Assembly (NCBI GenBank): GCA_023247255.1
Contig: JAHFGV010000005.1
Coordinates: forward strand, 6,067 to 70,066
Reading direction: 5' to 3'
DNA: 64,000 bases
DNA from: Candidatus Omnitrophota bacterium
Lineage (GTDB): Bacteria; Omnitrophota; Gorgyraeia; Aquiviventales; Aquiviventaceae
A program made the translations under genes and the position numbers. This document shows, piece after piece, positions 1-51,057 of the stretch. Every line of letters starts with the position of its first letter. The stretch's first letter is position 1. Below the pieces are notes generated by a model, which worked only from the letters and a program-made list of their open reading frames with translations, had not been told where the DNA came from and made no database searches.

Positions 1-75
1 ATGAGACAGCACGGCAGATCGACCCAGCCACCGGCGACTTCATAAACACAGGGCACAGCTACCCTGATACAGAAA

Positions 76-1071
76 ATGCCTGATCTTCGTGTGAAGATTG
101 GTTCCCTGACGTTACCGAATCCGGTCTTGGTTGCGGCAGGGACCTTTGGTTACGGCCTTGAGTTTACCTCAGCCATCCGCTTGGATCATCTCGGTGCGTT
201 GATTACAAAAACCTTAACCGCAACGCCGCGATCGGGTCATTTGCCCCCCCGTCTTGCCGTTACTCCTTCAGGGATGCTTAACTCTGTTGGGCTGCAGAAC
301 ATTGGACTTGAGGCATTTCTTGAGACGAAGCTTCCACAACTGCGCCGGTATTCGGTGGCAGTGATCGTAAGCGTGTTGGGGGAATCGGCCAAGGAGCTGG
401 CAGAGATGGTCGGACGAATCGATCGTGCCGATGGCGTTTCCGGAGTCGAACTGAATATGTCGTGTCCCAACCTCGAAGAGGGACAGGGGACGGGGGGCGG
501 GGGGCAGGGGGGGGATTCCAGCATTCCCCTGCCCCCTGTCTCGCGCCCCTTGCCCCGTCTTATTGCGCAGGATGCTGAGGCGACGGCTGCGATGGTGCAG
601 GCGGCCCGGGCAAAAACCAGCAAACTTTTGATCGCGAAATTGAGTCCCGACGTCACCGATCTAAGGCCCATCGCGCGAGCGGCCGAGCGGGCAGGGGCCG
701 ATGCCTTGAGCGTGGGGAATACTTTCATCGGGATGAGCCTGGATCCAGAAACCCGTCGGTCCCGTCTGGGTTCCCTCACCGGCGGTTTAAGCGGACCCGC
801 GATTCGTCCGCTTTCACTTTATAGGGTGTGGTATACTGCCCCGGTTGTTCGCATTCCGGTAATCGGTGCAGGGGGTATCGTACAGGCCAAGGATGCCGTT
901 GAGTATTTCCTGGCCGGAGCCAAAGCCGTTGCAGTGGGTACCGCAAACTTTGTGCGACCGGATGCCGCCAGGCAAATCGTCCACGGTATCGAGCGCTACA
1001 TGATTCGACACAAACTAAGCGCCATACACGAACTTTATGGAGCCATCGATTTCCATTCCCCATGGCCGTAA
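76..1071 (+). CDS. pyrD: dihydroorotate dehydrogenase, class 1 catalytic subunit
   Basis: 331-aa track ORF with motifs AAGTFGYG, ELNMSCPN, GGLSGPAIRP and VIGAGGI. Carries an extra Gly/Pro-rich loop encoded by the repeat at 475-560. Confidence 0.85.
   Translation: MPDLRVKIGSLTLPNPVLVAAGTFGYGLEFTSAIRLDHLGALITKTLTATPRSGHLPPRLAVTPSGMLNSVGLQNIGLEAFLETKLPQLRRYSVAVIVSVLGESAKELAEMVGRIDRADGVSGVELNMSCPNLEEGQGTGGGGQGGDSSIPLPPVSRPLPRLIAQDAEATAAMVQAARAKTSKLLIAKLSPDVTDLRPIARAAERAGADALSVGNTFIGMSLDPETRRSRLGSLTGGLSGPAIRPLSLYRVWYTAPVVRIPVIGAGGIVQAKDAVEYFLAGAKAVAVGTANFVRPDAARQIVHGIERYMIRHKLSAIHELYGAIDFHSPWP
475..560. repeat. GC-rich palindromic element, copy P, in frame inside pyrD
   Basis: G-run arm followed by C-run arm. 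Perfect 11-bp stem GGGGGCAGGGG (500-510) / CCCCTGCCCCC (526-536). C-arm 524-556 aligns by eye at ~85% with the C-arm at 15771-15803. Confidence 0.6.
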
Positions 1072-1832
1072 GGCAGCTCAAATCAGGCGTTCCTGTAGAT
1101 TATCGAGGCACGGTTGACCATCCCCGAGTTGCTTCCGACCGTTTGATCGTGGCGTTGGACTCCGCTGATTTGCCATCCGCGCTTGCCATGGCCAGGCGCC
1201 TTAAGGGTATCGTACGGATGGTTAAAATCGGAAGCGTCCTTTTCACCGCTTGTGGGCCTGTGGCGATTCGTAAAATAAAACAGTTGGGCTTCGACGTCAT
1301 GTTGGATTTGAAATTTTTCGATATCCCCTCCACCATCGAGATGAGTTGCCGCGCGGCCGCGCGTCATCGAGTGTCTTTGCTTACGGTGCATGCCACCGGC
1401 CAGCGTCCGATGTTAGAGGCGGCTGTGCGCGGAGCAACCGAGGAGGCTTGGCGTCTTGGCTTGCCTGTTCCAGATGTGCTTGCCGTTACCGTTCTGACCA
1501 GTGTGGGAGAAAACAACCGGCGTTCGATAAGCGCCCAGGTGCTGAGATTGGCTGAGCAAGCAAGACAAGCCCATTGCCCAGGGGTAGTGGCATCCGCACA
1601 GGAAGCGGCGAAGCTTCGCAAGCGTTTTGGCCAGCAGCTGAGGATTCTCTGCCCAGGCATCCGAGCATCCAGCGCTGGAGGGGACGATCAGCACCGGGTG
1701 GCAACACCCAGCCAGGCGCTCTTGGCCGGGGCCGATTGGTTGGTGGTGGGTCGACCCATCACTGCGTCTGTCGATCCGCGTCAGGCTACGAAGCGGATCC
1801 TCAAGGAGATGGAGGCGGCAACGGAATGTTGA
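1062..1832 (+). CDS. pyrF: orotidine 5'-phosphate decarboxylase
   Basis: 256 aa with LIVALD, VKIG, DLKFFDIPST and LTVHA motifs. Overlaps pyrD by 10 nt. Confidence 0.85.
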   Translation: MAVRQLKSGVPVDYRGTVDHPRVASDRLIVALDSADLPSALAMARRLKGIVRMVKIGSVLFTACGPVAIRKIKQLGFDVMLDLKFFDIPSTIEMSCRAAARHRVSLLTVHATGQRPMLEAAVRGATEEAWRLGLPVPDVLAVTVLTSVGENNRRSISAQVLRLAEQARQAHCPGVVASAQEAAKLRKRFGQQLRILCPGIRASSAGGDDQHRVATPSQALLAGADWLVVGRPITASVDPRQATKRILKEMEAATEC

Positions 1833-2422
1833 CACGCGATCAGCTTCTTGCCATCTTTCGCCAGTGCAACGCCCTTCAGCGAGGGCATTTTGAACTCTCT
1901 TCAGGGCTGCATAGTGGGCACTACTTTCAATGCGCGCAGTTTTTGCAACACCCGAAACTAGCTGCTACCGTCTGCCGCGAGCTTGCCCGGCGATTTGTGT
2001 CGCGCAAGCCAACCGTCGTGATCGGTCCGGCGACGGGAGGCATCATCGTGGCGTATGAAGTTGCCCGAGCCCTGAGGGGCAGGGCCCTCTACGCCGAGCG
2101 GGTCGATGCCGAGATGCAATTGCGTCGCGGGTTCACCGTGACGAAGTTGGATCGGGTGCTTTTAGTGGAAGATGTGGTCACAACCGGAGAGTCTGCCCGG
2201 AAGGTGGCGGAGTTGGTAGAGGCTATGGGTGCGAAGGTAGTCGGCATCGGTGCCGTTGTGGATCGCTCCGGCGGCAAGGTTCGTTTCCGAGGCTGTCGTT
2301 ACGAAAAGCTGCTGGAACTGGACTTTGAGCACTTCGGACCGCACGACTGCCCCCTGTGTAACGAGCACATCCCTTTGACCCATCCGGGTCGGCCGAAAAA
2401 AGGCATGTTCCAAGAGAAATAA
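1826..2422 (+). CDS. pyrE: orotate phosphoribosyltransferase
   Basis: ATG 1826 overlaps the pyrF stop (ATGTTGA). GHFELSSGLHS and the PRPP-binding motif LLVEDVVTTGES are present. The track start at 1574 is in-frame read-through over pyrF. Confidence 0.85.
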   Translation: MLTRDQLLAIFRQCNALQRGHFELSSGLHSGHYFQCAQFLQHPKLAATVCRELARRFVSRKPTVVIGPATGGIIVAYEVARALRGRALYAERVDAEMQLRRGFTVTKLDRVLLVEDVVTTGESARKVAELVEAMGAKVVGIGAVVDRSGGKVRFRGCRYEKLLELDFEHFGPHDCPLCNEHIPLTHPGRPKKGMFQEK

Positions 2423-2700
2423 TAATGAGGATTGTGTCCTATTCCAAGAGAAGTAATGAGGATTGTGTCATGTTTCATGAGTCATGTGTCATGAGAGACT
2501 GTTTCATGTGTTATGTGTCATGAAAAAAGCAGAAAATAAACAGGCATCTCAAGCACGGCCAAAGTACGCCTTTTGCTTTCCATGACTCATGACACATAAA
2601 ACATGAAACATGACACAGACGTGAGTACTGGAGCTTAGAACCGTGACTCATGAAACAGACGTGAGCACTGCCACTAACCGCGATGCATTTTGAAAACCCT
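2409..2700. repeat. CATG-rich tandem plus inverted repeat element
   Basis: A ~30-nt tandem duplication spans the pyrE stop (2409-2440 / 2443-2471). A GTCATG-rich arm (2466-2523) is complementary to a CATGAC-rich arm (2579-2627). The terminal 55 nt (2645-2699) recur at 40158-40213. Confidence 0.7.
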
Positions 2701-2719
2701 CAGATCTAAGAGGTTCACC

Positions 2720-3247
2720 ATGCCTCACGAGTCGATCATCCGAGCCACGGTCGGCGTACTCTTAAGCGGCCTGATCCTCACGGCCGCCTTTTGGGTCGTG
2801 GCGTTACGGAATCTTTTTCGCGCCACCCTCAGCTTAGGGCTTGTCTTGGTCGGGGTGGCTTGTGTCTTTCTTTTGCTTGAAGCGGAGTTCTTGGCATTTG
2901 TTCAGATTTTGGTCTATGTGGGTGCGATTCTGACTTTGGTTGTGTTCGCCGTCATGTTAACGGCTCGTCTGCACATCAGCCCCGCCACACGGGTGACTCA
3001 CCGCCAAGATTCCTGGCTCGCGGGTGCGGCAGCCCTAGCCCTGTTTGGATTATTGGTCTGGGCCACGCAATCGTTGACATTTCCCCAGCGCTTGGCCGTG
3101 GAGTCGGTCCGGTTAACCGCTGTGGGCCAGCAATTCATTACGACTCTGATTTTACCCTTTGAGGCGATCTCCCTGATTTTTGTGGCGGCCATGGTAGGTG
3201 CCATTGCTTTGGTGACTCGTCAATTCCCGCCGTCGGCTGAGCCCTAA
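2720..3247 (+). CDS. nuoJ: NADH-quinone oxidoreductase subunit J
   Basis: ATG 2720 follows AAGAGG. Polytopic ND6/NuoJ-like sequence (LLEAEFLAFVQILVYVGAILTLVVF). The track TTG start at 2690 lies inside the repeat. Confidence 0.8.
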   Translation: MPHESIIRATVGVLLSGLILTAAFWVVALRNLFRATLSLGLVLVGVACVFLLLEAEFLAFVQILVYVGAILTLVVFAVMLTARLHISPATRVTHRQDSWLAGAAALALFGLLVWATQSLTFPQRLAVESVRLTAVGQQFITTLILPFEAISLIFVAAMVGAIALVTRQFPPSAEP

Positions 3248-3288
3248 CAGGTTACAGGAAAATGCCCTGTTTGCTCAAAGCTAACAAT

Positions 3289-3549
3289 GGGGGGAACGGG
3301 GTGGGAGACGTGGGGCGTGGGAGAACAGATTACAAGAGATAAAAAGTCCTACAACCGGTTTTAAAAAAGGGTTCTTCTGGTTTTGCAGTGGGTAAAAGGA
3401 GCAACACTTCCCTCTCCCAAAGGGAGAGGGAGAAGGGCATGCCCATATATCCCGGAAGCGCCTAAAAAAGAACGGGCGATGTCTAGCTTTCAAGATTTAT
3501 GGAGTGCTATTCGCACTTCCCTCGCCCCCCGCCCCGTTCCCTTTACCCC
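3289..3549. repeat. GC-rich element, copy K, with G-run/C-run terminal inverted repeats
   Basis: G-arm 3289-3328 (runs G6,G4,G3,G4,G3) and C-arm 3514-3549 are about 21/26 complementary. Internal perfect hairpin CCCTCTCCC-AAA-GGGAGAGGG (3410-3430). Confidence 0.55.
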
Positions 3550-3603
3550 GGATGCGGGTTTTTCAGCAGTCTGCTGATAGCAAGGATATTGAAACGTAAA
3601 CTC

Positions 3604-3903
3604 ATGGAGCTGCGGATTCTACTTTGGTTGTCTTGCGGTTTGTTCTCGATTGGGGTCTACGGGATGCTGACTCGGCGACACGCGATCGGTCTTTTGCTTG
3701 CCCTGGAACTCATGCTCAACGCCGCGGCCTTGAACTTCGTGCTCTTTAGTCGATGGTTCGGCCATGTGCAGGCGCAAGCCTTCGCGCTTTTCATCATCGC
3801 CCTGGCTGCCTGTGAGGCGGTGGTTGGGCTTGCGATTATCATCAGCCTGGCCCGCAGCGCCCACACCGTACTCGTCGATGAAGCGAGCCTCTTAAAAGGA
3901 TGA
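3604..3903 (+). CDS. nuoK: NADH-quinone oxidoreductase subunit K
   Basis: 100 aa from ATG 3604 with ND4L-like LALELMLNAAALNF and AACEAVVGLAII. The stop overlaps the nuoL ATG (ATGA). Confidence 0.85.
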   Translation: MELRILLWLSCGLFSIGVYGMLTRRHAIGLLLALELMLNAAALNFVLFSRWFGHVQAQAFALFIIALAACEAVVGLAIIISLARSAHTVLVDEASLLKG

Positions 3904-5816
3904 AGATGCTTTTGTGGATTCCAGGCCTGCCTTTGTTGGCCGCTGCGATATTGCTGCTCGTTGGCAGACGCTTGGGACGCTGGAGTTCTCATGTGGCGAT
4001 TGCCGCCATGAGTGGTTCGGCGGCGTTGGTCTTCTTGATAGGGAGCTGGATTCTCGATGGTCATCGGTTAGGGGTGCGCTGGATATGGTTGTCCGCGCAA
4101 AAGCCACAGTGGTCGCTGGGTCTGGCCGTCGACGGATTGAGCTGGATCATGCTCGTTGTCGTTACCCTGATCGGTACGATGATTATGGTCTACTCAGTGG
4201 GCTACATGCACGCAGACGCACGGTTCAGTCGGTTTTTCGCCTACCTGTGTCTTTTCTGTGCTTCCATGCTGGGGTTGGTGATGGCCGATCATTTTTTACT
4301 GCTCTATGGCTGCTGGGAGCTCGTCGGGCTGTGTTCCTATTTATTGATCAGCTTCTGGTTTGAAAAGCCGGCTGCAGCCGCCGCGGGCCGGAAGGCTTTT
4401 ATCACGACTCGCATTGGGGATACGGGGCTGTTGCTGGGCATCTTTCTCTTAGCCCTGACGGTTGGCGATCTTCGTCTTCAGAATCTGGAAGTTATCCGTG
4501 CGCAGTTGAGCGAACGTTCCTGGCTCTTGACTCTGATCAGTACATTGATTTTTGTGGGAGCCATGGGCAAGTCCGCGCAAATTCCTCTTCATGTCTGGCT
4601 GCCGGATGCGATGGAGGGTCCGACTGCCGTATCCGCCCTCATCCATGCAGCGACGATGGTAGCGGCCGGGGTGTATCTTGTGGCGCGCAGTTTTGTTTTG
4701 TTCACCCCGCAGAGCCTCCAGGGGGTGTTGATCGTCGGACTGCTTACCCATCTTTTGGCCGGGACCGTCGCCCTGACGATGACCGACATCAAAAAGGTCC
4801 TGGCCTACTCGACCATCAGCCAGTTGGGGTTGATGATGACGGCCCTGGGTCTTGGGGCGCAGGCGGCGGCGATGTTTCACCTGTTCACTCATGCGTTCTT
4901 CAAGGCACTTTTGTTTTTGGCGGCCGGCAGCGTCATCCATGCTACCCATCAACAGGATCTTTCCCAGCTCGGTGGACTCTTCCGAAAGATGCGCGCGACG
5001 GCGATTTTGTTTCTCATCGGCGTTCTGTCGATGAGCGGTTTTCCCTTTCTGAGCGGATTCTGGAGCAAGGATGCAATCTTGGCGGCTGCGTTACACGATG
5101 TGCCGGCGCTCTTCTGGACGTTACTGGCTGGGGCGGTTTTGACAGCGAGTTATACATTCCGGTTGTTTCTGCGGTGCTTTCACGGCGAGTCGGCAGACGC
5201 AAGAGGGCACACAGCACACAGCGTGCATGAATCGCCGGCTATCATGCTTATACCCATGGCGGTCTTGGCTCTTGGAGCGGTCTTCGCCGGTCTTTTAGGA
5301 TCGCCGTGGCTGCATCAGCCGATCTTTCATCTGCTCGGTTCAAAACGCCTGCATGAAGGGATCGATGTGCCGATTTTGCTTTTGTCGAGCGGCGCTGTGG
5401 CTGTCGGATTCGCTCTGGCGTGGCTTTCGGGTTTCAAACGCCAGCTGCACCTGCCTGAATCCTTGCGTCCGTTGGGTCAATTTTTCTATCGGCTTTCGGT
5501 GAACAAATACTATGTGGATGAGGCTTATGACCGCTGGATCGTTCAGCCGTTTCAAGCAGCGACCCGCCGATTGTCCCAGTTTGATCAGCGCGTCATTGAT
5601 GGCAGCGTCAATGGGGTCGCCGAGTTGGGCTGGAAGCTCGGTCAGGGGAAAGAGCGTTTTGACGCCAAGGTTATCGATCGGCTCGTCAACGGCATTGCCA
5701 GTTCCACGCGCCGGATGGCGATGGGGCTTCGGCTGATTCAAACCGGTGTGATTCAAAACTACCTGCTGGCTGTTGTGGTCTCAGTGGTTGTGTTCGCCTG
5801 GCTGTTGCGTCCATAA
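3900..5816 (+). CDS. nuoL: NADH-quinone oxidoreductase subunit L
   Basis: 638 aa with WELVGLCSYLLISFW, TRIGD and GKSAQIPLHVWLPDAMEGPT. Confidence 0.9.
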   Translation: MKMLLWIPGLPLLAAAILLLVGRRLGRWSSHVAIAAMSGSAALVFLIGSWILDGHRLGVRWIWLSAQKPQWSLGLAVDGLSWIMLVVVTLIGTMIMVYSVGYMHADARFSRFFAYLCLFCASMLGLVMADHFLLLYGCWELVGLCSYLLISFWFEKPAAAAAGRKAFITTRIGDTGLLLGIFLLALTVGDLRLQNLEVIRAQLSERSWLLTLISTLIFVGAMGKSAQIPLHVWLPDAMEGPTAVSALIHAATMVAAGVYLVARSFVLFTPQSLQGVLIVGLLTHLLAGTVALTMTDIKKVLAYSTISQLGLMMTALGLGAQAAAMFHLFTHAFFKALLFLAAGSVIHATHQQDLSQLGGLFRKMRATAILFLIGVLSMSGFPFLSGFWSKDAILAAALHDVPALFWTLLAGAVLTASYTFRLFLRCFHGESADARGHTAHSVHESPAIMLIPMAVLALGAVFAGLLGSPWLHQPIFHLLGSKRLHEGIDVPILLLSSGAVAVGFALAWLSGFKRQLHLPESLRPLGQFFYRLSVNKYYVDEAYDRWIVQPFQAATRRLSQFDQRVIDGSVNGVAELGWKLGQGKERFDAKVIDRLVNGIASSTRRMAMGLRLIQTGVIQNYLLAVVVSVVVFAWLLRP

Positions 5817-5826
5817 ATTCCGCAGT

Positions 5827-6325
5827 TTTTAGCAGGATGCTAAAAGACCCACGGGATGCTAGAGTGCCTAACATAATGATCGCATGGTCGCGCTGGGCGT
5901 AATTGCTTCGATGCGCAAGACGCCAGGAGGAAGCCGTACTGATCCATAGAAGTACGGTGACGACGAGCAACGCAGCGCGGCGAAGCAATTCCGCCCAGCC
6001 CTTAGGGTTGCACTGAAAGATGGCCATCTGCTGCGTCGTTCCTCCTCGGCGTAGCGCTCCTTCGGCTACGCCTTCGTCGTCACTCCTTGCATCTGGGCCA
6101 TCTTTCAGTGCAACGCGGCCATGTGCTCATTATGTTAGGCACTCTTAGGCTGCTCAAAAAGGTGCGAGATGCAAGGCGCAGCTCGATTCGGCTGAGTCCT
6201 TTGACTATCGCTCAGGACTCAGCCCTGAGCAACGTCGAAGGGCTGAGGAGGCGCGTACTTTCAAGTACGCTGACGAAGCCGTCAGGCATACAACGCAGCA
6301 GATGTGTCTTTTTCAGCAGCCTGCT
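5827..6325. repeat. multi-hairpin structured spacer (nested inverted repeats)
   Basis: Outer inverted repeat 5861-5893 / 6117-6149, containing an 18-nt perfect core. Inner inverted repeats 5894-5911/5982-5999 (17/18) and 6009-6026/6097-6114 (18/18). Further hairpins lie at 6193-6286. The spacer is bounded by the similar motifs TTTTTAGCAGGATGCT (5827) and TTTTTCAGCAGCCTGCT (6309). Confidence 0.6.
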
Positions 6326-6340
6326 TAGGGAGATGCGCAC

Positions 6341-7792
6341 ATGCTAAGTGTTTTGTTACTGTGTCCACTCATCGGGATGTTGGTGGTCTTGGCCTTGCCC
6401 AAGACAGCCGTGCGGGCCATTCGGTTTGTCGCTTTGCTCGCAAGCGGGCTGGCCTTGGCTTTTGCGATCCAGTTGTTCCAGTTCTTCCGGCCACAAGAGG
6501 CAATCCAGTTAGTCGAGCGGATAGTCTGGATCCCGCAGATGCGCATTTTCTATCACGTCGGTGTGGATGGGCTTAGCCTGCCTCTTGTGTTTTTAACCGT
6601 TCTGTTAGGGTTCATCGCCTGTCTGGCTTCCGCCTCCATCACCGAGCGTCAGAAAGAGTACTACGCCCTGTACCTGCTGTTGGAGATGGGGATGCTGGGC
6701 ACGTTCATGGCATTGGATTTTTTCTTGTTCTATGTCTTCTGGGAAGTGGTGTTGGTGCCGATGTATTTCTTGATCGGCATCTGGGGCGGCGGTCGTCGGG
6801 AATACTCGGCTTTTAAGTTTTTTGTCTACACCCTCGCCGGCAGCCTGGCGATATTGTTGGCCATCTTGATGCTTTATTTCCGCACGGGGACCTTTGATAT
6901 GGTTGCCCTTGCGCAGATGGGACCGTTGCTAGAGCCGGATCTCCAACGACTGCTTTTTGTGGCGTTCTTCTTGGGATTCGCCATCAAGGTTCCGGTTTTT
7001 CCATTCCACACCTGGCTTCCGGATGCGCACGTCGATGCCCCCACCCCGATCAGCGTCCTGTTGGCCGGGGTGTTGCTGAAAATGGGAGGCTACGGCTTTT
7101 TCCGTATCGCCTATCCTATCTGCCCTGAGGGGGCGCAATGGGCAGCAGGGGCGATGGCCGTTTTGGGGATGATCAACATTGTCTACGGCGCTTTCGTTGC
7201 GATGGCCCAGACCGATTTTAAGAAACTCGTCGCCTACTCTTCCGTTTCCCATATGGGATTTGTCCTGCTTGGGCTGGCGAGCCTTCAGACGGAAGGCGTC
7301 AACGGGGCATTGTTGCAGATGTTCAATCACGGCACGATCACCGGTGGCATGTTCTTGTTAGTCGGCGTGCTCTATGATCGGGCGCACACCCGAGACCTCA
7401 ATGCCTTCGGCGGGCTGGGCGCGCACATGCCTAAGTTTTCAGGATTGCTTATTTTTTTCGGGCTGGCTTCTTTAGGGCTTCCGGGTTTGAGTGGATTTGT
7501 GGGGGAATTTTTGTCTCTGCTGGGGGCCTTCGGGGTCTGGCGATGGCAGACGGTCGTCTCAGTGCTAGGAATCGTCGTCGCGGCGGCCTATATCCTCACG
7601 GCGATTCAGCGAGTCTTGCTGGGGCCGCCAAACGAACGCTGGAAAAATCTGCCGGATGTCAATCCGAGAGAGATGGCCAGCTTGATCCCGCTCGTTGTGC
7701 TTATCTTGGCGTTGGGGGTTTATCCTTTGTTATTGATCGATCTTCAGGATGGAGCGGTTCAGCAGTTTATCGCCCACGTCAAAGGACCGTAG
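6341..7792 (+). CDS. nuoM: NADH-quinone oxidoreductase subunit M
   Basis: 483 aa with FAIKVPVFPFHTWLPDAHVDAPT and KMGGYGFFR. Confidence 0.9.
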   Translation: MLSVLLLCPLIGMLVVLALPKTAVRAIRFVALLASGLALAFAIQLFQFFRPQEAIQLVERIVWIPQMRIFYHVGVDGLSLPLVFLTVLLGFIACLASASITERQKEYYALYLLLEMGMLGTFMALDFFLFYVFWEVVLVPMYFLIGIWGGGRREYSAFKFFVYTLAGSLAILLAILMLYFRTGTFDMVALAQMGPLLEPDLQRLLFVAFFLGFAIKVPVFPFHTWLPDAHVDAPTPISVLLAGVLLKMGGYGFFRIAYPICPEGAQWAAGAMAVLGMINIVYGAFVAMAQTDFKKLVAYSSVSHMGFVLLGLASLQTEGVNGALLQMFNHGTITGGMFLLVGVLYDRAHTRDLNAFGGLGAHMPKFSGLLIFFGLASLGLPGLSGFVGEFLSLLGAFGVWRWQTVVSVLGIVVAAAYILTAIQRVLLGPPNERWKNLPDVNPREMASLIPLVVLILALGVYPLLLIDLQDGAVQQFIAHVKGP

Positions 7793-7880
7793 TTTGTCTT
7801 TCGTGAAACACCCCTCGATAAGGATAGACATAAACTATAGAGAGCTTCTCCTTCACGAGATACGCTACGAGCTACGAAAA

Positions 7881-9383
7881 ATGAGTGCTCTGTTACTTGA
7901 GAGTCTACGCGCTTGGTGGCCTGAAACTATCCTAAGCTTCGGGGCATTGGGGGTGTTGCTACTGGGAGCCTGGGTCCGTCCGGCTGGTCCCTCGAAGGCC
8001 ACAAGCAACGGCGGCCTCTTTGCCGCCGAGACGTCTACCACGAGTACCCGTCTATTTTGGATCGCAAGTGGGGTGATCCTCGTTGCCTCAGGGGTGGCGC
8101 TTTGGTTTTCTCCGACGAGCCCGGACAGCGAGACCTTCTTTGGTTTGATCATCTGCGATCCGCTCAGCCGGGTTCTTCGGTGGATTGCCTTGGCAACGAC
8201 GGCTTTGGTTATCCTGATGGTCGTAGATTCCCGTGAGGTTGTTTCCCATCGCAGGGGTGAGTACGTGGGGCTTTTGCTGCTGATCGGTCTGGGGCTCATG
8301 CTCATGGCGGAGGCGAATCATCTGCTGATGGCCTATGTGGCGATGGAGCTGGTCAGTTTGAGTTCTTATGTCTTGGTGGGGTTCTTGGACCAGCGGCGAT
8401 CCGCCGAGGCGGCGCTCAAGTATCTGTTCTTCGGAGCCTTGTCCTCAGCGGTGATGCTTTTCGGGATGTCTCTTCTGTTCGGGCTCACAGGGCAGTTGGG
8501 TTTCCCCGACATCCTTCAAGCGCTGATGCGTCCGGTAGCCGGTTCAGGGGCGCTGATGATGGTGGCCGTGACCTTTCTTCTGGCAGGGCTCGCCTTTAAG
8601 ATTTCCATGGTGCCTTTTCACATGTGGACGCCGGATGCCTACGAAGGGGCTCCGGTGCCTGTGGCTGCTTTTTTGTCCGTAGGTCCTAAAGCGGCGGGGC
8701 TTGCCCTGTTGCTTCGAGTAATGACTGCGCTGGGGCCGAGATGGCCGGATCTGGAGCCGCTTATCCTGAGCCTTACGATTGTGACGATGACTTTAGGCAA
8801 TCTGGTAGCCATTGTGCAGACGAATGTGAAGCGGCTGCTTGCCTATTCGACGATCGCTCAGGTGGGCTATCTTTTGATTGGATTCTCTGTCAATTCCAAC
8901 CTGGGATTGCAAGCCATCCTCGTTTACCTGGTGGCTTACATGTTCATGAATCTGGGGGTTTTTGCTTGTGCGGTGGCGGTCGTGAATGATTCGGGAAACG
9001 AATCCCTGGAGGCCTTTCGAGGGCTGGCGCAACGCTCGCCGGTCCTTGCGTTTTTATGCACGCTGTTTCTCCTTTCCTTGGCGGGCATTCCCCCGCTTCT
9101 GGGATTTTTCGGAAAGTTCCTTCTCTTCGGGGCCGCGGTCGAATCGGGACAGATCGTTCTTGCTATCGCGGGCGTCGTAAACAGCGCGGTGGCGCTCTAC
9201 TACTATATCAACCTGGTACGACTGATGTACCTATTGGATCCTCAACAGGCTCGCCCCCTGCATCTTAAGCTTCCCCTGCGGCTGGCTGTGGTTCTCTGCG
9301 GGGTCGGGACACTATGGCTTGGCTTATTCCCCAACGAGTTGGTGGCGTTGCTTCGAGGGTCTTCGTTCATCAGCTTGTTCTAA
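7881..9383 (+). CDS. nuoN: NADH-quinone oxidoreductase subunit N
   Basis: ATG 7881 (500 aa) with FKISMVPFHMWTPDAYEGAP and LAYSTIAQVGY. The track start at 7749 overlaps the nuoM end. Confidence 0.85.
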   Translation: MSALLLESLRAWWPETILSFGALGVLLLGAWVRPAGPSKATSNGGLFAAETSTTSTRLFWIASGVILVASGVALWFSPTSPDSETFFGLIICDPLSRVLRWIALATTALVILMVVDSREVVSHRRGEYVGLLLLIGLGLMLMAEANHLLMAYVAMELVSLSSYVLVGFLDQRRSAEAALKYLFFGALSSAVMLFGMSLLFGLTGQLGFPDILQALMRPVAGSGALMMVAVTFLLAGLAFKISMVPFHMWTPDAYEGAPVPVAAFLSVGPKAAGLALLLRVMTALGPRWPDLEPLILSLTIVTMTLGNLVAIVQTNVKRLLAYSTIAQVGYLLIGFSVNSNLGLQAILVYLVAYMFMNLGVFACAVAVVNDSGNESLEAFRGLAQRSPVLAFLCTLFLLSLAGIPPLLGFFGKFLLFGAAVESGQIVLAIAGVVNSAVALYYYINLVRLMYLLDPQQARPLHLKLPLRLAVVLCGVGTLWLGLFPNELVALLRGSSFISLF

Positions 9384-9395
9384 GCCGTGAAAATT

Positions 9396-9425
9396 TTCAC
9401 AAAGCGAAGGCTCTTGTGTTATAAT
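9396..9425 (+). promoter_or_regulatory. sigma70-like promoter candidate for the atp operon
   Basis: TTCACA (9396-9401), 18-nt spacer, then TGT-TATAAT (extended -10, hexamer 9420-9425), about 20 nt before the atpZ ATG. Confidence 0.4.
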
Positions 9426-9445
9426 CCCCCCACCTGTGGGGGATC

Positions 9446-9676
9446 ATGCGTGCCGATTGGTCGACTTGGGCCCAGCAAGCGGGATTGTTGACGTCCATTC
9501 CCTTTGTATTGCTAGTCGGTCCCGCGATCGGCTACTCTCTCGGTGCTGCCTTAGATCATCGATGGCCCTATACTCCTTGTGGATTGGTGGGAGGAATTGT
9601 CTTAGGATTTCTCGCAAGTGGTAAGGTAACGATTCAATTGATTCGTCAGGCGCAGAAACTCAATCGCAATGGGTGA
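9446..9676 (+). CDS. atpZ: AtpZ-like small membrane protein of F-ATPase operons
   Basis: 76 aa with two TM helices and the pattern GPAIGYSLGAALD...GLVGGIVLG. Sits at the head of the atp operon. Confidence 0.55.
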   Translation: MRADWSTWAQQAGLLTSIPFVLLVGPAIGYSLGAALDHRWPYTPCGLVGGIVLGFLASGKVTIQLIRQAQKLNRNG

Positions 9677-10073
9677 CGCATTCATTCGACGACTGTGGCG
9701 CTTGGGCAGTACCCTCTTGTTAGTCAGTGGAGGGCTTGCCGGTTCTTTTTACGGTATTCGGGGTGCGCTCGGTGTGCTCTCAGGAGGGTTCTGGAATTTA
9801 ATCAACCTCTGGTGCCTTCAGAATTTGCTCAACGCTTGGTTAGGCACTACGCGCTCTACCCGTCGAGTTGTGGGGTGGATAGTGCTTAAGTTCTTATTCC
9901 TCTATGGGCTCGTAGTGCTCCTGTTGCGCCATCCAGCCATTTCCCTCATGGGGTTTGGTATTGGGTTTACTATTATATTGATCAGCGCCATCGGTATCTT
10001 TGCGGTCCAAGCAAGGGGTTTGATTGTCACTGTTTCCCAAGCAGGTCCCGGTGCAGTCCGTGGCTATCGCTGA
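9669..10073 (+). CDS. atpI: ATP synthase protein I-like membrane protein
   Basis: 134 aa, about 4 TM helices, positioned between atpZ and atpB. Confidence 0.5.
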   Translation: MGDAFIRRLWRLGSTLLLVSGGLAGSFYGIRGALGVLSGGFWNLINLWCLQNLLNAWLGTTRSTRRVVGWIVLKFLFLYGLVVLLLRHPAISLMGFGIGFTIILISAIGIFAVQARGLIVTVSQAGPGAVRGYR

Positions 10074-10076
10074 AAA

Positions 10077-10928
10077 TTGACAGATATGATCGCTGAAGCC
10101 CTCGAACGCGCTTCCCACCCAGTCGAACAAGCGACCGCGCATGCGGCAGCGTCCGCTGGATCTCACGGGACAGAGATTCCGGAACTCGCTAACTGGATCA
10201 GTCTGATAAATCATCGCCTTGCTGACTCAGCCTTTGTTGCGTGGCTTCATCACTGGGAGGATTTAGCTTTTTCACTGTTGGTGGGTCTTATGCTTTGTGC
10301 CATCAGTTGGCTCTATGCGAGAAAACCCTCAATGGTACCGCGGGGCCCGCAAAACCTCCTGGAGCTTTTAGTCGAAAGTATCGACCAATCTGTGCAAGGT
10401 ATCCTGGGTAAGGCAGGACGGCGCTACACACCCTTTATCGGCACGCTGTTTCTATACATCTTGCTTATGAACCTGTCTGTGTTGATTCCTGGTATGAAAT
10501 CCGCAACGTCCCGATTGAACACAACGCTTGGGTTGGCTCTGGTTGTTTTCTGCCACGTGCAGTGGATTGGCATAAAATCCAGAGGGTTCCTTAAGTATCT
10601 CGATCATCTGGCCGGCTCGCCACGAGATGCCGTTGGCTGGACGCTGATACCCCTGATGTTTCCGATCCATCTGTTGGGTGAGATCGTCAAGCCCATGAGC
10701 CTGAGCTTGCGACTCGGCTTCAATGTTTTTGCGGAAGATGTGCTGTTGGCGGTCCTGGTGGGTTTGGGGCTCTCGGCAGGCTTGTTACTCCATTTGCCCG
10801 TTGGCCTGCCGCTTCAGACGTTTGTTGTCCCTTTGGTTTTGATCTTTAGTACGGTGCAGGCTCTGGTATTCAGCCTGCTGAGTACAATTTACATCGCACT
10901 TTTGTTACCTCACGAAGCGCATCATTAG
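10077..10928 (+). CDS. atpB: F0 ATP synthase subunit a
   Basis: 283 aa with the conserved-Arg motif LSLRLGFNVFAED. The start may be TTG 10077 or ATG 10086. Confidence 0.9.
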   Translation: MTDMIAEALERASHPVEQATAHAAASAGSHGTEIPELANWISLINHRLADSAFVAWLHHWEDLAFSLLVGLMLCAISWLYARKPSMVPRGPQNLLELLVESIDQSVQGILGKAGRRYTPFIGTLFLYILLMNLSVLIPGMKSATSRLNTTLGLALVVFCHVQWIGIKSRGFLKYLDHLAGSPRDAVGWTLIPLMFPIHLLGEIVKPMSLSLRLGFNVFAEDVLLAVLVGLGLSAGLLLHLPVGLPLQTFVVPLVLIFSTVQALVFSLLSTIYIALLLPHEAHH

Positions 10929-10956
10929 TACACTAGAAACAAGGAGGAGAATCGCT

Positions 10957-11199
10957 ATGCCACAGACGTATCAAGCGATGTTGGCACTCACTGTGCCGTT
11001 AGCCTTAGGGTTAGCCGCGATGGCCTCGGCGTTCGGCTTGGGCCGAGCAGTGAGTGCTGCCATGGAAGCCATTGCGCGTCAGCCAGAAGCCGGTGGACAG
11101 ATCCAAACCACTATGATCATCGGCTGCGCCCTCATCGAAGCGTTGACGATCTATGTTCTTGTCATCGCCTTCGTCCTTCAAGGCAAGATTACCGTCTAG
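10957..11199 (+). CDS. atpE: F0 ATP synthase subunit c
   Basis: 80-aa hairpin protein with EAIARQPE and the carboxylate in ALIEALTIY. AAGGAGG lies upstream. Confidence 0.9.
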   Translation: MPQTYQAMLALTVPLALGLAAMASAFGLGRAVSAAMEAIARQPEAGGQIQTTMIIGCALIEALTIYVLVIAFVLQGKITV

Positions 11200-11773: not shown

Positions 11774-11882
11774 ATTGCCGATTTTCGATTTTGGGCTGAG
11801 AGAATTTTCGATTGTAGATTTTAGATTGTCGATTGGAAAACACGACAAATCGACAATCGAAAATTGACAATCGACGATTCGT
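11772..11882. repeat. CGATTGTCGATT-unit palindromic element, copy A
   Basis: Starts at the atpF stop. The arms TAGATTGTCGATT and AATCGACAATCGA are complementary. Related to copy B at 19280-19363. Confidence 0.6.
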
Positions 11883-11940
11883 TGGGCCTTAAGCCAAAAG
11901 CCTTGAGCAAACAGATATTTTCCGTAGCCTGCTAGTACGA

Positions 11941-15093: not shown

Positions 15094-15131
15094 TTTTTAT
15101 GGATTATCCAGAAGAAAGGAGGTGCGGTACG

Positions 15132-15392
15132 ATGACCAAGGGACTGGTGGCGCCGATATCCTCCAAGGGGCAGGTGACACTCCCAAAAGGTGTGCGCGAG
15201 CTCCTTCACGTAGAGCGTGGCGACTATATCCGCTTTGAGCCAAAGGTTGACGGAGTATGGGTCACAAAAATCCGGCTTGAGCCAGAGGGGTTCTCTGAGA
15301 ATGAGTGGAAGACCCTTGAGCGTTTAGCGCGTCAGAAAGGTAAGCGATACACCGATGCAAAGGCCTTTCTCAAAGATCTCGAAGCGCTCTGA
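15132..15392 (+). CDS. AbrB/SpoVT-family antitoxin
   Basis: ATG 15132 follows AAGGAGG. SpoVT/AbrB looped-hinge motif SSKGQVTLPKGVRELL. Confidence 0.7.
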   Translation: MTKGLVAPISSKGQVTLPKGVRELLHVERGDYIRFEPKVDGVWVTKIRLEPEGFSENEWKTLERLARQKGKRYTDAKAFLKDLEAL

Positions 15393-15401
15393 TGCGTTCT
15401 G

Positions 15402-15680
15402 ATGCGTTATGAGCGCAAGCCATCCTTTAGCCGGTCTCTGCGACGTTTGCCCCCTGATCGGAAGGTACGCATCAAAGATGCGATTCGCAACCTTGTGATC
15501 TTCCTCGAAACCAAACAGCAGCCGCATGGGCTTGGCTTAAAACGTCTGCGAGCAGACTACTGGCAGGTGCGGGCAGGATTGGGGGATCGGGTTATCTTCC
15601 GACTGGTCGATGACCTCATTGAGTTTGTGATTGTTGGGAGTCATGATGAGATCCAACGGTTTCTACGTCATTCCGTTTGA
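15402..15680 (+). CDS. RelE/ParE-superfamily toxin
   Basis: 92 aa with YWQVRAGLGDRVIFRLVDDLIEFVIVGSHDE, which fits the RelE/ParE fold pattern. Paired with the upstream antitoxin. Confidence 0.6.
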   Translation: MRYERKPSFSRSLRRLPPDRKVRIKDAIRNLVIFLETKQQPHGLGLKRLRADYWQVRAGLGDRVIFRLVDDLIEFVIVGSHDEIQRFLRHSV

Positions 15681-15715: not shown

Positions 15716-17239
<1,524 letters not shown>

Positions 17240-19139: not shown

Positions 19140-19213
19140 GGGCGGTTAGCTCAGTTGGTTAGAGCGTCTGATTTACATTCAGAAGGTCGGGGGTTCGAGT
19201 CCTCCACCGCCCA
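19140..19213 (+). tRNA. tRNA-Val (anticodon TAC)
   Basis: Cloverleaf folded by hand: acceptor GGGCGGT/ACCGCCC, D-arm GCTC..GAGC, anticodon loop TTTACAT, T-loop TTCGAGT. Confidence 0.9.
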
Positions 19214-19279: not shown

Positions 19280-19363
19280 GGGAATTGTCGATTGACGATT
19301 GTCGATTTTTGATTGAACGGCCGTCTTCCAATCGACAATCCAAAATCGACAATCGAAAATTCC
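19280..19363. repeat. CGATTGTCGATT-unit palindromic element, copy B
   Basis: Ends GGGAATTGTCGATT / AATCGAAAATTCCC are 13/14 complementary. Shares AATCGACAATCGAAAATT with copy A. Confidence 0.6.
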
Positions 19364-21126: not shown

Positions 21127-22193
21127 TAGATCTGTTGCACAATTGCCCAATTTGTAGCATCCTATCCTTAACGCAGAGGAGGAACAAAGGCATGCTACGA
21201 TTTGCCAAACTCGTGCACCACCCGAGGAAACTCTACAGAATGACGGGACTTACGCTTGACCAGTTCCAGACGCTGACGAATCGGCTCACCCCGCTGTGGG
21301 AGCAAGCGGAACGGATGTGCCTCTCGCAGCGCAAGCGAAAGCCACGCCATCGGGAAAGAGTACCAAGTACAAGCTCTCCACGATGGCGGACAAACTCCTG
21401 TGCGTGCTCAGCTTCTACCGCTTCTACCTCTACCTTTGAGCTGCTCGGCTATCTCGTCGGCCTGGATGCCAGCAATATCTGTCGGCTAAAGCCTCGGCTC
21501 GAACCGCTCATTGAGCAGGCAGCCGATCCAAGCCTGGGGCTGTCGCTCCGCCGTCGGCTCCCGCCCGGCGTCAAGAGAATCGGCACCTGGGAGGAACTCG
21601 TGGAGCGCTGTCCGGACTTCGCAGACGTGGTCACTGATGCGACCAAGCAGGCACGACTCCGTCCACCGCGACGCACCCAGCGGCGCTGGTACTCCGGCAA
21701 ACGTAAGCGCCACACACTCAAGACGCAGTTGAGCATCACTCGGCAGAGTGGCCGGATCCTCCATATCAGTTCAACCGTCCCGGGCCGTGTCCATGACTAC
21801 GCGCTCTTGAAGCGGACGCGACTGGACGAACGGCTGCCGCCGAAGACGCGCCTCACCCTGGATCGGGGGTATGATGGTGCCATGACGGACTATCCGACTC
21901 CCGCTATCGCGCTGCCCGTCAAGCGTCGAGGCAACCACCAGGTCCTGACGCGCTCGGAGCGGGCATTCAACCGCCTCCAGGCGCGGCAGCGGATCATCGT
22001 GGAGCATGTCCCAAGTTGCGTGAAGAAGTACCAGCTCCTCGCGCAGGTCTACCGCCACCGGATCGCGGACTACAACCACCGCTTTCGCAACATTGCGGCC
22101 TTGACGAACTTCCGCCTAACGCCGACGGTGACGTAACCGAACCCGGACGCGCGGAGCCTTCATCGTGTCAAGGGCAACTGCGCAATAGGTCTA
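21127..22193 (+). mobile_element. IS element (IS5/Harbinger-type DDE_Tnp_4 transposase)
   Basis: Imperfect terminal inverted repeats: TAGATCTGTTGCACAATTGCCC (21127-21148) against the reverse complement of 22172-22193 (about 17/21). One transposase ORF lies inside. Confidence 0.7.
21192..22136 (+). pseudogene. DDE_Tnp_4 transposase with compensating frameshifts
   Basis: ATG 21192 follows GAGGAGG. Core motifs DATKQARLRP, YSGKRKRHTLK, PGRVHDY and DRGYDG are present. The family-typical segment KYKLSTMADKLLCVLSFYRFYL is readable only in the +2 frame between about 21350 and 21431. Confidence 0.6.
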
Positions 22194-23768: not shown

Positions 23769-23842
23769 GGGGGCGTAGCTCAATTGGTTAGAGTGGCGGC
23801 CTGTCGAGCCGTAGGTTGCGGGTTCGAGCCCCGTCGCCCCCG
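23769..23842 (+). tRNA. tRNA-Asp (anticodon GTC)
   Basis: Acceptor GGGGGCG/CGCCCCC, D-arm GCTC..GAGT, anticodon loop CTGTCGA, T-loop TTCGAGC. Confidence 0.9.
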
Positions 23843-25848: not shown

Positions 25849-26925
25849 GTGAACCTCCTCGTTGTGGGACTCAGTCATCGCACCGCGCCGCTCGAATTGC
25901 GCGAGCTGCTGGCGATCCCGTCACGCGAGTTGCCCGACACACTCGGCGATCTTCATACCCAGTTCGGGATCGATGAAGCGGTGATCCTGTCGACCTGCAA
26001 TCGGGTTGAGATCTACGTCATCACACCAGACCCCTCCGCAACCTCCTACGGCCTCATCGACTTCTTGAGTCATCGAAGCCACGTGGCCCCCGAGGCGTTC
26101 CAATCCCGGATGTATTGCCTAACGGGACCTGACGCGGTGAGACAGCTCTTTGGCGTCACTGCAGGGCTGGATTCGATGGTCCTTGGGGAGTCAGAAATCA
26201 CGGCCCAAGTGAAACAAGCCTATCGGGTGGCACAAACCGAAGAGACAACCGGGCTTGTGCTCCATCGCCTCTTCCAGAAAGCCTTGCACACGGCAAAGGT
26301 CATTCGATCCAAGACACGCTTAGGCTTTGGCCAAGCCTCCATCGGATCAATCGTTGTCGCGCTTGCCAGGAAACTCTTCGAAGGGCAACTTCAAAATTGC
26401 GAAGTCTTGCTTTGGGGAGCCGGAAAGGCGGCGGAATCGACTGCACGGTATCTCATCAAGAACGGGGTGGGCCAGTTGTGGATTGTCAACCGCACACCGC
26501 TCAAAGCGCGGGATCTTGCGACGCTTTGCCAAAGCGGCTGGCTCTCGTGGGAGCAGGCGTTGAAGCACCTCGCCCACGTCGATATTGCCATCGTCTGCAC
26601 CCAAGCGCCGCACTACGTCATCGATCAAGGCGACCTCGATGCGGTTGCGGCTCAGCGCGGCAGCCGCCCCCTGTGTCTCGTTGACCTGGCGGTGCCTCGC
26701 AACGTCGAGCCGTCCCTCGCGCGGCATCCCGGTGTGCGCCTCTACAACATCGATGATCTCCAAACCATTACGCAGGCTGCACAATCGCAGCGTGAACAGG
26801 AACGCGAACGCTCTGACGCGCTCATTCAGGAGCAGGTCAACCATTTCTCTCGTTGGTGGATGGCAGTTTCCCACAAGAAGGAGGATGTTCCATGCCGATC
26901 CGTCGAGGCCTTCTCGTCGGTGTGA
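25849..26925 (+). CDS. hemA: glutamyl-tRNA reductase (short C-terminus)
   Basis: GTG start. Motifs VVGLSHRTAPLELRE, STCNRVEIY, GESEI and GAGKAAE are present. At 358 aa it is shorter than the ~420 aa I recall as typical. Confidence 0.85.
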   Translation: MNLLVVGLSHRTAPLELRELLAIPSRELPDTLGDLHTQFGIDEAVILSTCNRVEIYVITPDPSATSYGLIDFLSHRSHVAPEAFQSRMYCLTGPDAVRQLFGVTAGLDSMVLGESEITAQVKQAYRVAQTEETTGLVLHRLFQKALHTAKVIRSKTRLGFGQASIGSIVVALARKLFEGQLQNCEVLLWGAGKAAESTARYLIKNGVGQLWIVNRTPLKARDLATLCQSGWLSWEQALKHLAHVDIAIVCTQAPHYVIDQGDLDAVAAQRGSRPLCLVDLAVPRNVEPSLARHPGVRLYNIDDLQTITQAAQSQREQERERSDALIQEQVNHFSRWWMAVSHKKEDVPCRSVEAFSSV

Positions 26926-28118: not shown

Positions 28119-28130
28119 AGGAGACGCCTC

Positions 28131-30634: not shown

Positions 30635-30638
30635 CCTG

Positions 30639-32995: not shown

Positions 32996-33032
32996 AATCT
33001 GCCATTTCCGGCTATGATATCTGCGGAGCATC

Positions 33033-34550: not shown

Positions 34551-34627
34551 GCCTGCCCGCCTGTCGTCCAAAAGTGTGATCTGGGTCATAGTTCGTCTCC
34601 CTGCGTTCTGAGAAGATTACTTAGGCG

Positions 34628-45365: not shown

Positions 45366-45367
45366 CC

Positions 45368-49521: not shown

Positions 49522-49541
49522 CGAGATGAGGCGTGTGAGCG

Positions 49542-49826: not shown

Positions 49827-51057
<1,231 letters not shown>

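Follow-up and report, generated by a model that had tools for sequence, protein, structure and literature searches.

The nuoJ-nuoK Locus

The DNA considered here, hereafter called the window, is a 64,000-nt stretch of the Candidatus Omnitrophota contig JAHFGV010000005.1 (assembly GCA_023247255.1, forward strand, positions 6,067-70,066), in which a set of pyrimidine-synthesis genes is followed on the same strand by the complex I genes nuoJ to nuoN. The subject of this article is the 356-nt spacer that separates nuoJ from nuoK (3248-3603), and in particular the 261 nt of that spacer (3289-3549) that are bounded by inverted repeats, one of them an arm of G-runs and the other an arm of C-runs. Together with 3.65 kb of upstream sequence taken from a second locus, L097, about 68 kb of this genome were examined; coordinates of all features are collected in Table 1. 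The identity of the flanking genes rests on Pfam domains (Table 1) and on protein matches: a protein identical to NuoJ is present in a public collection (P0001), the exact NuoK protein is found on public contigs, and the closest public NuoJ proteins are otherwise 60-67% identical, several of them labelled Candidatus Omnitrophica.

The spacer is present in other assemblies. L097, an independent ENA assembly, corresponds to window positions 1-11071 and contains the complete spacer with 0 mismatches, and a Logan contig (L081) is identical to positions 3387-4940; the agreement of these sequences argues against an assembly artefact. Three short public nuoK contigs begin within the spacer, at approximately 3387, 3413, and 3482, which suggests that the region is difficult for assembly.

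Anatomy of the Spacer Element

The element is one long degenerate palindrome centred on position 3420, in which the outer arms and a central hairpin are well preserved. When 3289-3418 is aligned globally to the reverse complement of 3422-3549, 86 matches are obtained in 148 columns, and a repeat search recovers the arms as 3292-3322 and 3511-3541, 31 nt in length, 77% complementary (24/31) and 188 nt apart. An earlier note on this DNA had described five G-runs with loops of 3, 1, 6, and 3 nt, arms complementary at 21 of 26 positions around some 185 bp, and a perfect hairpin with an AAA loop inside the element; the G-runs read exactly so at 3289-3321, the figures for the arms are close to those found here, and the hairpin, TCCCTCTCCC-AAA-GGGAGAGGGA, lies at 3409-3431 with 100% complementarity. 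The central hairpin as a whole folds at -21.8 kcal/mol (z = -4.3), and its two arms repeat, at an offset of 109 nt, the inward-facing ends of the C and G arms. Complementarity between the interior halves (3326-3404 and 3435-3513) is weak (z = 2.1; 15 of 500 shuffles score equally well), which is what a long palindrome with an eroded middle should show. A tandem 109-nt duplication of the interior was considered and rejected, the 79-nt halves being dissimilar in direct orientation (z = 0.4) and weakly alike as reverse complements (z = 2.1).

The spacer is non-coding. Its open reading frames (ORFs) are all of 70 aa or fewer, none is conserved or present in the protein collection, and the 64-aa ORF of the plus strand has no homologue; matches of the 70-aa minus-strand ORF to three tandem-repeat proteins, which were sums of weak matches, were rejected as low-complexity artefacts. 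The length of the spacer, its structure, and its relatively A/T-rich interior could suggest an independent small RNA gene, an antisense transcript, or an internal promoter or leader for nuoK-N, and immediately past the G arm, at the hairpin of the left flank, the minus strand does contain a weak terminator-like hairpin (3281->3264). Such terminator-like matches are, however, no more frequent in the region than in shuffles. The spacer has no Rfam match at gathering thresholds in a search of the whole window and nothing credible even at E <= 5 in a search of 2400-6400; no sigma-70-like promoter or terminator is detected on the plus strand in 3248-3603, counts being no higher than in shuffles; and no homologous sequence occurs in any relative or collection searched. 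A dedicated RNA gene or promoter of this kind is thus very improbable.

Comparison With Syntenic Relatives

Six Omnitrophota loci (L001, L082, L085, L086, L087, and L099) share the gene order (carB-pilZ-)pyrD-pyrF-pyrE-nuoJ-nuoK-nuoL-nuoM-nuoN with the window. In all six, nuoJ and nuoK overlap or are separated by no more than 4 nt (from -4 to +4 nt), as against 356 nt here, and in 15 more distant loci the distance has a median of 2 nt and a maximum of about 113 nt. Since the two genes overlap or nearly so in 6/6 relatives, the spacer is a lineage-specific gain; abutting nuoJ and nuoK represent the ancestral state, and a gain in the lineage of the window is the parsimonious reading. An insertion at this point had been proposed in the earlier note, and none of the relatives, in which the same spacer might have been found, possesses it.

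The gain would have altered how nuoK is translated. The only Shine-Dalgarno-like site in the nuoK leader is AAGGA (3582-3586), 17 nt before the ATG, unlike nuoJ, nuoM, and atpD, which have GGAG-type sites at normal distances. The leader from 3582 to 3603 is unpaired in the minimum free energy (MFE) structure, and a motif similar to one in this leader, TTTTTCAGCAGYCTGCT, is found before nuoM (6309-6325). The stop/start coupling of nuoJ and nuoK in the relatives would be abolished here, and nuoK would have to initiate alone from its unpaired leader with a poorly placed Shine-Dalgarno sequence.

A Family of Convergent Heptamer Arms

The arms of the spacer element belong to a small family within this genome. 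The earlier note had pointed to related arms at 15725-15803 and inside pyrD, and hairpins with such arms do lie before atpD (15727-15803) and in-frame in pyrD (480-556); a third, a weaker profile match, lies in-frame in carB, about 2 kb upstream of the window. There are thus four known copies in the genome (nuoJ-nuoK, pyrD, carB, and pre-atpD), two of them in-frame in genes. The six arms within the window all align to one unit of about 33 nt and always occur as convergent pairs. A search with an nhmmer profile of the arms gives no sites in the 64 kb beyond the six themselves, and 86 other loci (~0.9 Mb) are without a match. Each of the three family hairpins in the window contains a core, GAGACNNGGGGC, a single time, and these three occurrences compare with 0.3 expected; the core is on the plus strand in the nuoJ-nuoK copy, whose G arm carries it within GAGACGTGGGGC at 3305-3316, and on the minus strand in the pyrD and atpD copies, the pyrD member having GAGACAGGGGGC as its minus-strand core.

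The shorter hairpins of the family are 75-80 bp long, with loops of 7-15 nt and tandem-repeat arms built of GRGGGRC-like units around the core GAGACNNGGGGC. A period of 7 nt is the best for both arms of the pyrD and atp hairpins, for the G arm of carB, and for the C arm of the nuoJ-nuoK copy (self-identity 0.62), and it is the best self-similarity period in 19 of the 24 arms examined from this and the sister hairpin families described below. The arms of these families are degenerate heptamer arrays.

A survey of copies has two outcomes. The arms have further family members in pyrD, in carB, before atpD, and in the relative L099, whereas searches of the ~68 kb, 99 fetched loci, the JGI metagenomes, and predicted proteins gave no second full-length element. 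The 27-nt central hairpin was found on nine contigs of the JGI metagenomes, all of them unrelated and each with the isolated hairpin only; these were rejected as family members, the motif being generic. In L088-L096 (for example L088 2853-2990 and L092 2053-2220), the string CCCTCTCCC-AAA-GGGAGAGGG occurs verbatim in unrelated contigs from soil and other metagenomes, often clustered with GGGTGAGGG/CCCTCACCC hairpins just 3' of genes. This string is a widespread generic G-run hairpin motif.

Hairpins Within carA, carB, and pyrD

The family extends to a second genome. In L099, a distant relative whose PyrD is 65% identical to that of the window, G/C hairpins lie in-frame in carA, carB, and pyrD, and two exact matches connect them with the window: 23 nt (CCCGCCCCTTGTCTCCCGCCCCC) between the pre-atpD C arm and the reverse complement of the L099 pyrD hairpin, and 18 nt (TCCCTCGCCCCCCGCCCC) between the nuoJ-nuoK C arm and the reverse complement of the L099 carB hairpin. 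The arms of the spacer element are, on this evidence, homologous to the three shorter hairpins of its own genome and to the carA, carB, and pyrD hairpins of L099.

Within pyrD, the insertion site is constant and the insert is not. The window member encodes GQGTGGGGQGGDSSIPLPPVSRPLP directly after the SCPN motif, and at least nine further PyrD homologues carry a peptide of the G theme (GQGAGDGGRG...PTPHAPRP) at the same site. In all five pyrD genes examined at the DNA level, as in the L099 gene, an in-frame hairpin follows directly after the SCPN active-site codons, with different heptamer arms in each; the arms are of G/C runs, GAGGCTS/CCTTCAA, CTCAGGG/CCCCCAG, or CCACCCT, or form a perfect palindrome of 22 bp. 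The stretch that follows SCPN varies from 8 to 44 residues in a set of 120 PyrD homologues and falls into a few recurring peptide themes, and the PyrD protein P0127, which is 89% identical to that of the window, carries a completely different insert. In carB, the hairpin lies in the linker between the two halves, before the second GGGPNRIGQG motif, in the window genome, L087, and L099. The in-frame hairpins found so far are all in pyrimidine-synthesis genes (carA, carB, and pyrD), with the G-rich arm in the leading position every time. In an unbiased 100-nt folding scan of the 64 kb, the only strong in-frame hairpin is that of pyrD; a pyrF hairpin that the scan returned in L082 was rejected as ordinary GC-rich coding sequence without an insertion.

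Sister Hairpin Families

Several other spacers hold hairpins of the same architecture with other arm sequences (Table 1). The TGTGTCATG/CATGA theme occupies the pyrE-nuoJ spacer, and its CATGA theme is related to a hairpin in the nuoM-nuoN spacer of L087 (9470-9564, z ~4.5-5); a CGATTGT/CGATTTT theme occurs twice in the window; and a nested palindrome of about 290 nt lies between nuoL and nuoM. The last has no Rfam match, and it matches L086 1339-1638, between carB and pilZ, at 68% over 303 nt (E = 6e-32); it is thus a conserved structured or mobile element present at different loci. Fold z is at or below -3.1 in 6 of 15 window spacers, against 1 of 14 coding controls, at -3.0. The relatives have themes of their own in the operon, namely GGACCG..TATTTTCC in L082, in three copies, and CACAGAG, ATTCCGC (four times), and TGTGTCATG in L087.

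An exact 33-nt repeat, CTCATGAAACAGACGTGAGCACTGCCACTAACC, is present at 2647-2679, 40 nt before nuoJ, and at 40160-40192, 3 nt before feoB, where none is expected by chance. The hairpin family of L082 (GGACCGnTnCTATTTTCC...GGAAAATAGnAnCGGTCC) has its three copies in three different nuo-operon spacers (3895-4000, 4793-4932, and 6844-6918).

Quadruplex or Stem

The earlier note had expected the mRNA strand to form either a strong G-quadruplex (G4) or a long stem. The stem is borne out by folding. The spacer RNA has a folding energy of -132.9 kcal/mol (z = -4.3), which none of 100 dinucleotide shuffles equals, and the value for the antisense strand is a little poorer (-122.1 kcal/mol, z = -3.8); the MFE structure contains 18 contiguous pairs that join 3288-3305 to 3528-3545 (11 GC, 3 AU, and 4 GU). 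The quadruplex is predicted for the isolated G arm only and is lost once the C arm is included.

A G4, or a switch between G4 and hairpin, might be imagined as a regulator, a site between nuoJ and nuoK at which RNA polymerase or ribosomes would pause. The G arm fits the canonical motif of four G3+ runs with N1-7 loops, its G4Hunter maximum of 2.28 is among those of the three strongest sites in the window, the isolated arm prefers the quadruplex (-13.0 vs -4.4 kcal/mol), a nascent transcript ending before the C arm does so marginally (-68.4 vs -65.4 kcal/mol), and similar heptameric G repeats of Xanthomonas and Nostoc form G4s in vitro (PMC4692102). Against such a regulator, the three strongest G4-prone tracts of the window are each followed by a complementary C tract, which would be superfluous for a quadruplex; the MFE structure contains no G4 in any of the three window hairpins (full spacer, pyrD, and atp) once the C arm is present; and sister families of the same architecture lack G-runs altogether (the CATGA and CGATTGT themes). 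Because each strong G4-prone tract is followed by its complement, these predictions point to the duplex rather than the quadruplex as the relevant structure, and regulation by a G4 switch is scarcely credible here.

In the nuoJKLMN transcript, the G arm would accordingly pair with the C arm through the 18 contiguous pairs of a structure of about -133 kcal/mol, and the long double-stranded segment could act as an exonuclease barrier or as a substrate of RNase III.

Comparison With Known Repeat Families

The closest described parallel appears to be the convergent G-rich heptameric repeats of Xanthomonas (GGGAATC) and Nostoc (GGGGA(C/T)T), which occur as convergent pairs (Rehm et al., 2015; PMC4692102). 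Xanthomonas genomes have 70-75 such pairs each, in which a G array is followed by its complement and a stem-loop can compete with a G4; the repeats of both genera are enriched between co-directional ORFs, transcribed, strongly variable in length and sequence between close relatives, and G4-competent in vitro, with no demonstrated function (PMC4692102). The family described here resembles them in that most of its arms consist of G-tract units some 7 nt long, as a rule no fewer than four, with the complement following on the same strand, and the element between nuoJ and nuoK has at least four G-tracts, a complementary array downstream on the same strand, and a position between two co-directional plus-strand genes. 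The differences lie in the unit, which is GRGGGRC/GAGACNNGGGGC-like rather than GGGAATC or GGGGA(C/T)T, in the palindromic 188-nt interior and weakly periodic G arm of the nuoJ-nuoK copy, in the presence of family members in-frame in enzymes at conserved sites, and in its host phylum, Omnitrophota.

In-frame insertion recalls the Rickettsia palindromic elements (RPEs), which are dispersed palindromes of ~100-150 bp found in intergenic regions and in-frame in unrelated housekeeping genes, where they add a peptide segment compatible with protein function (PMC10969869). The likeness concerns the pyrD, carB, and carA members, which are in-frame in housekeeping genes, and not the nuoJ-nuoK copy. 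No sequence relationship is apparent. An RPE family has a conserved consensus and peptide, whereas the arms here are low-complexity heptamer arrays, and even at 89% identity two PyrD proteins can have wholly different inserts at the same site. Membership of any RPE family is implausible from composition and host phylum. RPE insertion sites are not known to be conserved positions that carry different elements in different species.

Repetitive extragenic palindromic (REP) sequences and REPINs, which are mobilised by RAYT transposases (PMC3116915; PMC3337134), offer a third comparison. As in REPINs, an inverted doublet of a short unit with a spacer between forms a hairpin, the family is specific to the genome, and copies lie in operon spacers. 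Unlike REP sequences, the unit is not itself palindromic (the G arm folds at -4.4 kcal/mol, z = +0.4) and has no GTAG head; half of the known copies are intragenic, and no RAYT is found among the Pfam-scanned ORFs of the 68 kb.

The architecture had been called MITE-like in the earlier note, after the miniature inverted-repeat transposable elements. The label is apt in so far as the element is small and non-coding, has inverted repeats at its ends, can fold along its entire length, and carries arms from a dispersed family, and it resembles bacterial MITEs also in its long hairpin, its place in an operon spacer, and its variability between lineages (reviewed in PMC10969869). A classical MITE would be a deletion derivative of an insertion sequence (IS), moved in trans by a DDE transposase that reads the G-run/C-run ends as terminal inverted repeats. 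The 31-nt inverted repeats (77%) on a lineage-specific, non-coding element of 261 bp, within the size of short elements below ~600 bp, and the related arms elsewhere in the window would suit such an origin. No target-site duplication is seen, however, the best direct repeat over all plausible boundaries being 3 nt, which is chance level; no second full-length or near-identical copy was detected in the sequences searched, nor a parent IS in the window; the ends are tandem arrays of a short unit rather than ends of the transposase type; the other members are 75-80 bp long with tandem-repeat arms, two of them in-frame where relatives carry other hairpins; and the only transposase gene of the window has ends that are unrelated to the arms. 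A MITE in the strict sense is accordingly improbable. The element fails the description of a MITE (target-site duplication and parent IS), of REP sequences (palindromic unit and GTAG head), and of the Xanthomonas consensus, and is therefore a member of none of these families.

The transposase in question is an IS5/Harbinger-type DDE_Tnp_4 gene at 21135-22136, about 2 kb downstream of a tRNA gene, whose flanks are without clear terminal inverted repeats. It was rejected as the mobiliser, having no G-run/C-run ends.

Origin and Maintenance of the Element

The reading that we favour, if by a modest measure, is that the spacer is a lineage-specific copy of a dispersed G-run/C-run heptamer palindrome, that is, selfish or mutation-driven DNA that propagates in a hairpin-dependent manner without target-site duplication and is tolerated between nuoJ and nuoK. 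Alongside the shared arms, signs of dispersal are found in the homologue of the nuoL-nuoM element at another locus of L086, in the CATGA theme at another spacer of L087, and in the opposite orientation of GAGACNNGGGGC in the nuoJ-nuoK copy. The element is also dispensable and fast-evolving, the relatives having no such spacer and a PyrD protein of 89% identity having another insert. The process behind new copies would depend on the hairpin and would create no target-site duplication; candidates are replication slippage with intra- or inter-molecular template switching, or a Y1/HUH-type activity (RAYT- or IS200-like). Transposition by Y1 enzymes of the IS200/IS605 type is not expected to produce a target-site duplication. 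Copies would persist where they are harmless, in operon spacers and in the surface loops or linkers of enzymes, and from persistence at such sites we infer that the element is probably selfish or mutation-driven rather than a dedicated regulator.

A number of observations weigh against this reading. The 188-nt interior has no second copy in the window, the 99 fetched loci, or the JGI metagenomes, and the census of copies covers 68 kb of the genome. The G arm of this copy is weakly heptameric, k = 7 scoring 0.48 against a best of 0.50 at k = 10. Flanks of 41 nt on the left and 54 nt on the right, outside the palindrome, are also missing in the relatives and are not accounted for by this reading. 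No mobilising enzyme was found, there being neither a Y1 transposase nor a RAYT among the Pfam-scanned ORFs of the 68 kb. In addition, the carB and pyrD hairpins hold their position across genomes while their sequence changes, and wherever a spacer follows nuoL, which is the case in five genomes, it contains a hairpin, of a different sequence each time; in both cases selection for structure is possible.

These last points bear on the idea that the spacer is a selected intercistronic RNA, in which the stem would segment the pyr-nuo-atp transcript and set the expression of nuoJ relative to nuoK-N, either as a 3'-exonuclease barrier that protects nuoJ or as an RNase III processing site. REP and bacterial interspersed mosaic element (BIME) hairpins in Escherichia coli operons and the RNase III sites between the early genes of T7 provide parallels for a selected stem, and Newbury and co-workers reportedly found in 1987, at malE-malF, that REP hairpins can stabilise upstream mRNA. 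The mRNA-strand structure is strong and significant, structured spacers are in excess over coding controls, nearly all of the hairpins separate nuo or atp operon genes that run in the same direction, and for the three G/C hairpins of the window the sense fold is more stable than the antisense fold by 5.6-11.7 kcal/mol, as selection at the RNA level predicts. Across 22 hairpins, however, the sense and antisense energies differ in both directions with no consistent sense advantage. The nuoJ-nuoK hairpin is missing in 6/6 relatives, and L099 has no nuo or atp spacer hairpins at all, so such a structure is not required; some members of the family are intragenic, and cleavage at those would destroy the mRNA; and the stem is followed by GGAUGCGGG rather than by the U-tract of an intrinsic terminator, with no plus-strand terminator detected. 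Selection for the stem is therefore an unlikely account of the spacer, albeit the one that comes nearest to the reading preferred above.

The hairpins, in which a purine/G-rich arm precedes a pyrimidine/C-rich one, admit a further and improbable alternative, namely a clade-specific system in which they are either (a) intragenic and intercistronic attenuators that sense nucleotide pools or (b) the work of a mobile or conversion system specific to hairpins, by which hypervariable peptide cassettes are written into essential enzymes at fixed loops. In an attenuator, low CTP would slow RNA polymerase on the C arm, the ribosome would remain coupled, and the stem would fail to form, raising the output of CarA, CarB, and PyrD; copies in nuo and atp would then be spill-over. 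The precedence of the G arm in every case, the restriction of the in-frame hairpins found so far to carA, carB, and pyrD, and the conservation of position with complete turnover of sequence fit such a system.

The spacer alone is a curiosity, in that a complex I operon tolerates 356 nt of structured RNA between cistrons that are coupled in every relative examined. More surprising is a by-product: in a clade of Omnitrophota, carA, carB, and pyrD contain heptamer-armed hairpins whose site is conserved and whose sequence is hypervariable. The wider pattern points to an undescribed population of heptamer-repeat palindromes in a phylum known almost wholly from metagenomes, occupying operon spacers and fixed surface loops of CarA, CarB, and PyrD, with a turnover that leaves unrelated inserts in enzymes of 89% identity. 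If mobile, these palindromes would be a new example of hairpin mobility without target-site duplication outside Proteobacteria and cyanobacteria; should they be structural RNA signals, they would constitute a new type of intragenic control. In practical terms, such palindromes break short-read assemblies and generate spurious ORFs.

Table 1. Genes, parts of the nuoJ-nuoK spacer, and related hairpins (window coordinates unless a locus is named).
Feature	Position	Strand	Remarks
pyrD	76-1071	+	gene call
pyrF	1062-1832	+	gene call
pyrE	to 2422	+	gene call
nuoJ	2720-3247	+	NADH:quinone oxidoreductase chain 6, upstream cistron; Pfam PF00499, E = 4e-29
nuoK	3604-3903	+	chain 4L, downstream cistron; Pfam PF00420, E = 9e-26
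nuoL	3900-5816	+	gene call
nuoM	6341-7792	+	gene call
nuoN	7749-9383	+	gene call
Left spacer flank outside palindrome	3248-3288	+	small hairpin ACAGG-N7-CCTGT in MFE structure
G arm	3289-3322	+	GGGGGG-AAC-GGGG-T-GGG-AGACGT-GGGG-CGT-GGG, five G-runs
Interior	3323-3510	+	188 nt, more A/T-rich
Central hairpin	3405-3434	+	CACTTCCCTCTCCC-AAA-GGGAGAGGGAGAA, at symmetry centre; AAA 3419-3421
C arm	3511-3549	+	complementary to G arm; ends CCCTTT like other family members
Right flank and nuoK leader	3550-3603	+	small palindrome TCAGCAG-T-CTGCTGA at 3563-3577
nuoJ-nuoK junction, L082			distance 0 nt
nuoJ-nuoK junction, L085			distance -4 nt
nuoJ-nuoK junction, L086			distance -1 nt
nuoJ-nuoK junction, L087			distance +4 nt
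nuoJ-nuoK junction, L001			distance +4 nt
nuoJ-nuoK junction, L099			distance -1 nt
Family member in-frame in pyrD	480-556	+	arms 480-510/526-556, 31 nt, 77%; fold z = -4.6
Family member before atpD	15727-15803	+	G arm, TTTTTTT loop, C arm; arms within 15727-15800; fold z = -3.1
Family member in-frame in carB	L097 1642-1720		G/C; ~2 kb upstream of window; weaker profile match
pyrD in-frame hairpin, L082	~2056-2112		
pyrD in-frame hairpin, L085	~2700-2780		
pyrD in-frame hairpin, L086	~3100-3168		
pyrD in-frame hairpin, L087	~3130-3205		
pyrD in-frame hairpin, L099	10399-10480		
carB hairpin, L087	709-781		CCAACGCG x3.5
carB hairpin, L099	7644-7707		G/C theme
carA hairpin, L099	4060-4142		in interdomain linker
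TGTGTCATG/CATGA theme	2452-2629		pyrE/nuoJ spacer; fold z = -5.4
Nested palindrome, ~290 nt	core 5861-6148		in 524-nt nuoL/nuoM spacer 5817-6340; fold z = -10.6
CGATTGT/CGATTTT theme	11783-11899		atpF/atpH spacer; fold z = -5.3
CGATTGT/CGATTTT theme	19284-19360		downstream of tRNA gene; fold z = -4.9

Other Features of the Window

The ATP synthase operon is interrupted between atpG and atpD by a MazE-like antitoxin ORF and a small partner ORF (15099-15680), immediately before the G/C hairpin. Rfam matches in the window are limited to two tRNAs (19140-19213 and 23769-23842) and a molybdenum cofactor (Moco) riboswitch at 53228-53385, upstream of a moaA/moaC/moeA cluster. Two regions (26853-35944 and 43767-51867) hold genes for multihaem cytochromes c, a cytochrome b, a large molybdopterin oxidoreductase, an EB_dh-type subunit, and a NarJ-like chaperone, which suggests a respiratory module unusual for Omnitrophota.

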